This document shows, in pieces, positions 58,028 to 60,408 of a stretch of 64,000 nucleotides of DNA. The notes beneath the pieces are model-generated. The model searched no databases. It worked only from the letters and a program-made list of their open reading frames with translations, and had not been told where the DNA came from. Source of the stretch: an uncultured delta proteobacterium (GTDB lineage: Bacteria; Myxococcota_A; Polyangia; Polyangiales; JAFGIB01). A program made the translations under genes and the position numbers. Position 1 is the first letter of the stretch. Each line of letters begins with the position of its first letter. The DNA lies in contig CAVZVA010000010.1 in assembly GCA_963778655.1 (NCBI GenBank), forward strand, positions 1,576,924-1,640,923, read 5' to 3'.

Positions 58028-60086
58028 ATGGGCGAGGCGCCGGCCAAATCGAAAGCACGCTTCGGCACGCTCGGACGCGTGCTGATCGCCGATCTCGGCA
58101 CGCGGCAGTCGCGCGTGGAGCCGCTCGACGAGAGCGTCTACCAACGCTTTCTCGGCGGCTACGGGCTCGGCGCCTGGCTGATGTGGAAGCACTTCCCGGC
58201 CGGCACCGATCGCGCTCGCGCCCGAGGCCTGCTTCGCGATCTGTCTCGGGCCTGCTCACCGGCGCGCGCACCCCGTTCTCGGGTCGCATCCAGATCGTCG
58301 GCAAGTCGCCGCTGACCGGGTCTGGGCCGACTGCAACTCGGGCGGCAGCGTGGCCAGCCAGCTGCGCGCGCGCCGGCTACGACGCGCTGTTGGTGACGCG
58401 GCAAGGCGGCGCGAGCCGACCGTGCTGGTGGTGCGCGACGGCGAGGTGGCGTTCGAGCCGGCCGGCGAGCTGTGGGGCCAGGAGATCCCCGAGACCTTCG
58501 ACGCGCTGCAGCGCGCGCTGCGGCAAGCAGGCGAGGTCGGGGTGTCCGCGATCGGCCCGGCCGGCGAGCAGCTCGCGCGCATCGCCTCGGTGATGAACGA
58601 CCGCTACCACGCGTTCGGCCGCCAGGGCTTCGGCGCGATCTACGGCAGCAAGAACCTCAAGGCGATCGTGGTCGGCGGCACGGGCGAGGTGCCGATCGCG
58701 GATCCGGCACGAGTTCAAGGCGCTGTGCCAGGACATCACGCGCATGTACAAGCGCGACACTCAGCTGGTTCATGCGTTTCATGTTGTGGCTGACCAAGCC
58801 GCAGGCGCTGGATGGGCTTGATGTACCGCTCGATGGCGCCGCGCGGGCGCAAGCTGCAGGCCCCGAGCGCGCGATGCGCCAGCTCTGGGCCGACCGCGGC
58901 ACCACCGCGGCGCTGGCGCTGTCGATCGAGAACGGCGACGGGCCGGTCAAGAACTGGAAGGGCGTCGGCTCGCGCGATTTCCCGCTCGCGACCAAGAGCC
59001 ACAAGCTCGACGGCATGCAGGTCGACAAGCTACATCACCAGGAAGCTGTCAGCTGCGGCGACTGCCCGATGCCGTGCAAGGGCATCGTGGCGGTCAAGCA
59101 GCGCGGGCTCTCCGACGTCCGGCGGCCCGACTACGAGACCCTGGCCGGCTTCGGCGCCAACCTGCTCAACGACGACCTCGGGCTGGTCACCGCCTGCCAC
59201 GACGCGTGCAACCGCTACGGCATGGACGCGGTCAGCTCGAGCGGCGACGCTGGGCTGGGTGTGCCGAGGCGTCGGAGCAGGGCGTCCTCACTGCGGCCGA
59301 TCTCGACGGCATCGACATGCGCTGGGGCAACGGCGAGGCGGCGCTCGCGCTCACGATCAAGATGGGCACCGGCGAGGGCTGCGGCGCGTGGCTGCGGCCA
59401 CGGGGTCAAGCGCGCCGCCGCGCACGTCGGCAAGGGCAGCGAGCGCGTTCGCCGTCCACGTCCAGGCGGGCAGGAGCCGGCCTATCACGACCCGCGCTTC
59501 ACCTCGCTGATGGGCGTGACCTACATCGCCGATCCGACGCCCGGCCGTCATACCGCGGGCTCTGCCTCGTGGAACGAGACCTTCGCGCGCGGAGTTCCCG
59601 CTGCCGCAGGCGGCGGACGCGGCAGCAGGACTGGACGGTGCAAGTGGAAGGGCACCGAGGGCAAGGGCGTGGCCCAGGCGCCACTTCGCAACGCGCACCA
59701 GGCGATGAACGGCCTGGGGCTGTGCATGTTCACCGGCTCACCGGGCGCGCTGCCCTGGCTCGAGCTGGTCAACGCGCTGACCGGCTGGGCCTGAGCGAGA
59801 AGGACCTGCTGCAGTGCGGCGAGCGCATCCAGAACCTGCGCGCCGCGTTCAACCGCCGCGAGGGGCATCAGGCCGGCCGACTTCGCGCCGCACCCGCGCA
59901 TGCTGGGCGAGGGCGACGGCCTGCTCGACGCCGGCCCGCTCAAGGGCGTGCGGGTGCCGCTGCTGCATGCTGCGCGACGACTACTTCGACGCCATGGGCT
60001 GGAGCCGCAGCAACGGGCTGCTCAGCAAGCAGCGCGCCGAACAGCTCGGGCTGAGCGAGCTGCTCTCGGGCTACGTGGAGGCCTGA
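58028..60086 (+). pseudogene. aldehyde:ferredoxin oxidoreductase (tungsto/molybdopterin AOR family) gene, split across at least 12 frame changes
   Basis: ATG 58028 follows GGGAGGA. AOR-like segments are scattered over all three frames: '[37 protein letters not shown]', '[23 protein letters not shown]', '[20 protein letters not shown]...[17 protein letters not shown]', '[11 protein letters not shown]' (CxxCxxxC 4Fe-4S motif), '[36 protein letters not shown]', '[26 protein letters not shown]', 'NGLGLCMF', '[23 protein letters not shown]', '[29 protein letters not shown]'. Confidence 0.7.
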
Positions 60087-60090
60087 GCGG

Positions 60091-60408
60091 GTGGCGGGCT
60101 GGCTGTCGCGGTTGCGCGGCGCGCGCACGCCGCGGGTGCGAGTGCGGGTGGTGATCAAGGGACGCATCGGCGAAGGGTGGCAGGACGTGGACCGGGTGCT
60201 CACGCTGCAGCCGGGGACTACGCTCGCGACGCTGTTCGAGCACGCGGCGCGCGAGGGCATTCCGCTGCGCGACGCGGTCGACCACAGCCCACACCTGCGC
60301 CACACCCTGATGTGGAACGGCGAGCGCTGCCCGGTCGACGAGCACCTGCAGCGCGCCCTGCAGGACGGCGACGAGCTGTACTTGCTGGCACCGCTCGCCG
60401 GTGGCTGA
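60091..60408 (+). CDS. MoaD/ThiS-like ubiquitin-fold sulfur-carrier protein (C-terminal Gly-Gly)
   Basis: 105 aa ending '...[14 protein letters not shown]'. It starts 4 nt after the AOR stop. An AOR-plus-MoaD-like pairing is a known arrangement. Confidence 0.6.

Follow-up and report, generated by a model that had tools for sequence, protein, structure and literature searches.

A frameshifted AOR-family gene in a Polyangiales metagenome contig as a probable mixed-template consensus artefact

The AOR-family gene and its native allele

The DNA analysed here is a stretch of 64,000 nucleotides (the window) from an uncultured delta proteobacterium of the order Polyangiales (contig CAVZVA010000010.1, positions 1,576,924 to 1,640,923). 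Its forward strand carries, at 58028..60086, a coding region of the aldehyde:ferredoxin oxidoreductase (AOR) family that cannot be read in a single frame and that lies between an intact AraC-type gene and an intact ThiS/MoaD-like gene. A first-pass annotation of the letters alone had described this region as an AOR gene split by at least 12 frameshifts with little other decay, and had listed as possible causes a locally poor assembly or consensus, indel-prone replication that had very recently inactivated the gene, or something stranger.

Frameshift-aware dynamic-programming alignment of the window DNA with an intact homologous protein of 678 amino acids (P0001) outlined a stop-free path, collinear with the homologue, that runs from the ATG at 58028 to 60083 and ends at a stop codon in 60084-60086. 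This path requires 22 frame changes (sixteen of +1, two of +2 and four of -1), located approximately at 58211, 58242, 58321, 58368, 58396, 58412, 58713, 58771, 58802, 58854, 59033, 59052, 59243, 59262, 59398, 59447, 59463, 59591, 59628, 59789, 59866 and 59969, and several locally compensated slips, such as a gained A at 58510 and a lost A at 58530, come in addition to them. The first-pass count of at least 12 was hence true as a lower bound and too low as an estimate. All eight open reading frame (ORF) fragments on which it was built were found at their coordinates, and each of its 14 points of frame hopping lies at most about 15 nucleotides from an aligned frame change, with eight changes missed. 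Its premise that the linked segments are collinear with a homologue and devoid of internal stops also held when the repaired path was aligned to P0001, a check that the annotation had itself proposed. Consistent with this picture, TBLASTN with P0001 returned AOR pieces in frames 2, 3, 2 and 3, and AOR-like peptides are carried by all three forward frames between 58028 and 60086.

Over 2000 homologues were found in searches with the translation repaired by hand. The top matches are intact proteins of about 678 amino acids that align with the query over 100% of its length at 70-76% identity. These best matches stem from metagenome-assembled genomes (MAGs) of Polyangiales, Binatia and other groups, and encompass the AFOR_N and AFOR_C domains. 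With at least 22 frame changes, the window region reaches 76% identity over its full length to intact 678-residue homologues. Both Pfam domains were identified, in order, in the repaired protein, with AFOR_N (PF02730) spanning residues 16-217 (1.5e-67) and AFOR_C (PF01314) residues 281-670 (4.4e-84). The two motifs singled out by the first-pass annotation are likewise present, as GKSPLTG, a conserved motif of the AOR N-terminal domain, at 58300..58320 (+) and as CGDCPMPC at 59054..59077 (+). The latter is an instance of the CxxCxxxC pattern that, from what is known of the Pyrococcus furiosus AOR, we take to be the [4Fe-4S] ligand motif.

The W/Mo-pterin enzymes of the AOR family for which structures are available (P. 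furiosus AOR, 1AOR; FOR, 1B25; bacterial AOR, 8C0Z) likewise combine AFOR_N and AFOR_C with a CxxCxxxC motif. Among proteins of known structure, P. furiosus AOR is the nearest to P0001 (1aor_A, E = 3e-85). The clade to which the window gene belongs differs from these solved enzymes in length, with about 678 residues as opposed to 605-620, and in the constant presence of a ThiS/MoaD-like gene next to it (77/77). On these sequence features, the window gene is judged to be an ordinary member of a well-populated AOR-family clade of about 678 residues.

The exact proteins encoded by the ThiS-like and AraC neighbours were found in two public places only, the NCBI/ENA contig from which the window derives (1,776,425 bp) and the Logan contigs of run ERR11571143, in which contig numbers exceeding 1.7 million indicate a complex metagenome. 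Logan contigs are assemblies of exact k-mers seen repeatedly in reads, and for this reason they constitute a good witness for the native allele. Two of them cover the locus, with L002 (6914 nucleotides) corresponding to window positions 52253-59175 and L001 (2905 nucleotides) to 59512-62423, so that the native allele is known outside the central 336 nucleotides (59176-59511). A third contig, L083 (11,213 nucleotides), was reached via the exact protein encoded at 21202-21966 and matches 14101-25313 in BLAST without gaps and with 2 mismatches.

Outside the AOR gene, these three contigs underlie about 19.5 kb of the window and differ from it by 4 mismatches and 0 indels. The four differences are located at 57543 and 62369, where the window has C and the Logan contig T, and at two sites within 14101-25313, and they suggest that strains in the sample vary slightly. 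Inside 58176..59968 (+), base-by-base comparison with L002 and L001 revealed 63 substitutions (22 transitions and 41 transversions) and 30 indel bases, of which 23 are extra and 7 missing in the window, whereas the ends of the gene (its first 148 and last 118 nucleotides) are identical to the native allele. The impression of little other decay was therefore mistaken. The Logan AOR itself is uninterrupted, with an N-terminal piece of 379 amino acids that is cut off by the end of L002 and a C-terminal piece of 188 amino acids that reaches the normal stop in L001, and the protein it encodes is 84-85% identical to the homologues P0001-P0003, as compared to 80% for the repaired window protein. In an independent, k-mer-exact assembly of the same population, with near-identical flanks, the gene is thus intact over 567 of 678 codons, which strongly supports the poor assembly or consensus listed among the first-pass causes.

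The central segment between the two Logan contigs (59176..59511, +) is the most conserved part of the AOR gene and the part in which the window is most consensus-like. The end of L002 (59175) and the start of L001 (59512) fall at the edges of this segment, and these breaks would fit a branching de Bruijn graph in which k-mers are common to several genomes of the sample. The closest homologues recovered from Logan, P0004 and P0006, belong to the runs ERR3943994 and SRR30681651 and not to the sample of ERR11571143.

The G+C content of the window is about 70%, and that of the AOR region (70-75%) is equaled by its flanks. TBLASTN with P0001 detected no second AOR copy that could act as a paralogous donor within the 64-kb window, and an Rfam scan of the whole window returned no match for an RNA element behind the AOR locus. 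A count of phase switches in third-position G+C (GC3), used to look for other frameshifted genes, placed the AOR bin at the top with 18, but this measure is noisy and other bins reach up to 15-17. The gaps in the GC3-based gene map correspond to ordinary ORFs or to stretches that lie under identical Logan sequence.

Direction of the substitutions and structure of the indels

To characterize the departures from the native allele, taken as the Logan sequence, codon usage was tabulated per alignment column over 80 orthologous AOR genes taken from the genomes of GTDB species representatives, a set that does not contain the window's own genome. All 80 orthologous AOR genes are single intact ORFs. 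At nearly every substituted site, synonymous sites included, the window presents the commonest codon of the family, as illustrated by window codons TGG (found in 51 of the 80 orthologues), ATG, GTC and GGC (70 each), AAG (73), GAG (77) and, at another site, ATG (79). Among 48 cleanly substituted codons, the window codon is modal in 30 (62%) and the native codon in 6 (12%). When the 80 real orthologues were each compared with the native allele in the same way, the modal match averaged 35%, with a maximum of 47%, and the native codon was modal in 36% on average, with a minimum of 28%. Since real orthologues reach at most 47%, the window lies outside the range of real sequences.

The same trend was observed when considering which positions had changed. 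Changes of any kind affect 63 of the 220 columns with a non-modal native codon and 14 of the 347 with a modal one (Fisher p = 1.7e-16). The more frequent the modal codon is in the family, the more likely a change becomes, going from a probability of 0.11 to one of 0.80. At the base level, 291 sites have a non-modal native base; 49 of these were changed, and in 47 the new base is the modal one. Of the 1323 sites at which native and modal bases coincide, only 9 were changed. In all, 47 of 58 substituted bases (81%) go to the modal base of the 80 orthologues. In some codons several bases were exchanged at once, as from GCA to ATG or from AGC to TCC. In the AOR centre (59164-59523), the window presents 21 mismatches in 357 positions to the family-modal sequence, as compared to 39-40 to the real members L003 and L048. 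The deviations of the window AOR are hence directional, toward the mode of the family.

The indels display a related structure. The first-pass annotation had proposed locating them relative to homopolymer runs, which would implicate sequencing, and 24 of the 30 indel bases were found outside homopolymers, at run length 1. Instead, strings of four to five letters in the window correspond to a native codon merged with a common family codon, as in ACC and CTC giving ACTC, CTG and TAC giving CTAC, ACC and TGG giving ACTGG, CAG and AAG giving CAAG, CAG and GAG giving CGAG, and CTG and ACC giving ACCG. An exact supersequence of the native codon and either of the two other codons that are most common in the family was identified in 12 of 22 insertion codons, as compared to 3.1 +/- 1.6 (maximum 9) in a null of 2000 column shuffles. 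Merges were also detected in the centre (59176-59511), with CGC and GCG giving CGCG, and TGC and GCC giving TGCC. The single-base deletions all drop a contested first letter (AGC against CGC, GGC or GCG; ATC against CTC). Furthermore, some substituted codons are hybrids of two templates: TTG combines TTC and TGG, and TGC combines AGC with TCG or TCC, introducing a Cys at a site that encodes Ser in all 120 protein homologues and all 80 orthologous genes.

The five single-base deletions all remove an A, and adenine-targeted mutagenesis of the type driven by diversity-generating retroelements was considered on this account. It was rejected, given that the substitutions are mostly G/C exchanges at third positions and that the deleted A's are the contested first positions of AGC or ATC against CGC, GGC, GCG and CTC.

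Origin of the frameshifted sequence

Taken together, the sequence comparisons suggest that the frameshifted AOR is probably a consensus or polishing artefact of the metagenome contig, in which native reads were blended with AOR orthologues from other community members. The anomaly is localized and absent from the independent assembly, and the deviations can be explained as the native sequence plus other real templates, through modal codons, merges, hybrids and the dose-response to codon frequency. In such a process, AOR reads from other community members would have piled on the native reads over a conserved, high-GC gene during consensus building or, in a variant of the same process, an assembly-graph edge would have been collapsed across genomes. 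Where the native base is atypical among relatives, a majority vote would replace it by the base typical of the family. At codons that differ as a whole, the path of a partial-order or pile-up consensus would pass through letters of both, generating a merge of four to five letters (+1 or +2), or would drop a contested letter (-1). We infer both the software step behind the artefact and the number of donors, and we favour many donors over one because the best single sequence accounts for 32 of 48 variant codons, the modal match is above that of every real sequence and the response to codon frequency is graded. Blending with non-native homologous sequence had not been foreseen by the first-pass annotation.

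Errors of this kind have precedents. Reads mis-assigned over conserved genes, such as 16S rRNA, have been described to introduce errors into the consensus when metagenomes are polished (bioRxiv 10.1101/2020.04.08.032540), while the myloasm preprint holds nothing specific on a blended-gene error type. As in collapsed-repeat and mis-assigned-read errors, the damage at the AOR locus is confined to one highly conserved gene on an otherwise accurate contig, the independent assembly is clean and the errors point toward relatives. The AOR case differs in concerning a protein-coding gene rather than rRNA, in presenting a codon-level signature and in that the mixture is deduced from sequence. Ordinary long-read indel errors also frameshift genes, but they are linked to homopolymers (PMC9262707), whereas here the indels lie mostly outside them, cluster in the AOR gene and are accompanied by 63 directional substitutions.

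A related scenario would have the native allele collapsed with a single second AOR copy, be it the recombinant allele of a co-existing strain set in identical flanks or a paralogue elsewhere. Both Logan contigs break inside the AOR gene, as a branching graph would lead one to expect, neighbouring variant codons tend to switch jointly (e.g. GCG ATG versus GTG TTC), and five orthologues of one clade (L048, L050, L056, L058 and L070) match 31-32 of the 48 variant codons, a figure that an unsampled member of the clade could exceed. Nonetheless, a greedy cover of the variant codons takes at least four known donors and leaves five hybrid codons over, the modal match surpasses the maximum among the 80 real sequences, and the probability of change tracks codon frequencies across the whole family. 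With no second AOR copy in the window and one Logan contig per flank, a single donor appears rather unlikely, if still worth keeping in view. A faithful contig from a real sub-population harbouring a mosaic, dead AOR allele, formed by homeologous recombination with community AOR DNA or by repair templated from it, is in our assessment highly improbable.

At first sight, one many-times-shifted gene among intact neighbours resembles a pseudogene decaying by frameshift, such gene remnants do occur in nature, and the 4 differences in 19.5 kb of flanks imply that more than one genotype may be present, so that the Logan contigs could represent a sister strain in which the gene is intact. The native allele is nevertheless uninterrupted on L002 and L001 outside the central 336 nucleotides, and divergence of about 6% of bases inside the AOR gene against about 0.02% in the flanks is a contrast beyond neutral decay. 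A recent inactivation by indel-prone replication, as the first-pass annotation had envisaged, is difficult to reconcile with indels at run length 1 and with 63 substitutions that aim at the family consensus, multi-base codon swaps included. The 30 indel bases amount to about one for every two substitutions, far too many for a natural mutation spectrum, the path contains neither stops nor larger deletions, and merges such as ACTC or CTAC are made by no known mutational process. A genuine pseudogene in the sequenced strain is accordingly very unlikely, and the allele comparison indicates that the window AOR is very probably not a biological pseudogene, its native counterpart being intact in the same genomic context. 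A plain low-quality stretch, with random errors in a poorly covered or hard GC-rich tract and nothing foreign in it, would agree with the 70-75% G+C of the region and with the frameshifting indels that long-read consensus is known to leave (PMC9262707). Flanks of the same G+C show 0 indels in 19.5 kb, and errors that lie largely outside homopolymers and are directed at the family (p = 1.7e-16) go beyond random error, making this explanation hardly tenable. Finally, expression of the AOR through multiple programmed ribosomal frameshifts or RNA editing finds its sole argument in the stop-free repaired path; with at least 22 shifts of mixed sign and no common slippery motif, in a locus that is intact in the Logan data and a single ORF in 80 of 80 orthologues, its probability is negligible.

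Several observations weigh against a blended consensus. The read mixture is deduced from assembled sequences rather than from a read pile-up, in which a coverage spike would be expected, and ERR11571143 may not be the very read set behind the contig. At the DNA level, the 80 orthologues share 65-83% identity with the native allele (74% on average), which is low for cross-mapping, and the actual donors would therefore be closer relatives in the sample or would be confined to locally conserved stretches. Another conserved gene of the window, an RND-type ORF of 1042 amino acids at 36921..40049, shows no visible damage. Moreover, the Logan allele has an oddity of its own. At 59531-59533 (position 20 of L001) the native sequence reads AAT (Asn) and the window GAT, in a column that is Asp in 120 of 120 protein homologues and that all 80 orthologous genes encode by GAC or GAT. 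This Asn may be genuine and private to the native allele, or the Logan contig may contain a minor error or a chimera at this point.

The two-gene module, its neighbours and its significance

The neighbours of the AOR gene are intact, as the first-pass annotation had indicated. Four nucleotides past the AOR stop, at 60091..60408 (+), lies a ThiS/MoaD-like gene of 105 codons that is identical in L001. Its product matches Pfam ThiS (PF02597) with 24.4 bits over a cut-off of 22.5 and ends in LAPLAGG, with the C-terminal Gly-Gly of ThiS/MoaD proteins. A ThiS/MoaD-like gene is located directly 3' of the AOR gene, on the same strand, in all 77 orthologous loci with enough sequence. These findings point to a strictly conserved two-gene module, for which cofactor sulfur transfer or protein modification are candidate roles. 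Loci with this arrangement (among L003-L082) occur in MAGs labelled Myxococcota, Binatia, Acidobacteriota and Thermodesulfobacteriota.

Upstream, the intact gene at 56782..57831 (+) encodes an AraC-family regulator with Pfam Arabinose_bd, HTH_18 and HTH_AraC domains. The exact same protein is encoded on L002, and the one DNA difference within the gene, at 57543, is therefore synonymous. An AraC-like neighbour was observed in just 1 of the 80 orthologous AOR loci, and the regulator is not a conserved companion of this AOR in other genomes. Further upstream, the ORF at 55518-56738 (+) combines a long low-complexity start, rich in Gly, Ser and Ala, with an esterase-like domain, and presents a faint match to PF10503 (Esterase_PHB) in the Logan gene table.

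Within this clade, AOR proteins from MAGs whose labels place them in very different phyla share 70-76% identity, an unusually high value that may reflect horizontal spread. Being so unusually conserved, the AOR gene is prone to consensus blending across genomes. Five MAG records of GTDB representatives (L032, L004, L014, L025 and L038) carry an AOR of Myxococcota/Binatia type under titles naming unlikely taxa, namely Klebsiella pneumoniae, Spirochaetales, Spirochaetaceae and Enterobacterales, and these are probably mislabelled or contaminated bins.

The AOR locus advises caution, in that a long and near-perfect metagenome contig may hold one badly corrupted, highly conserved gene, which automatic annotation would call a pseudogene or cut into fragments. 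The codon signature described here, a shift toward family-modal codons that includes synonymous sites, together with merges of two codons, could flag such artefacts without recourse to reads. As for the organism, the intact native allele suggests that it most likely has a working AOR and ThiS/MoaD-like module, which is best regarded as present and probably functional, rather than lost.

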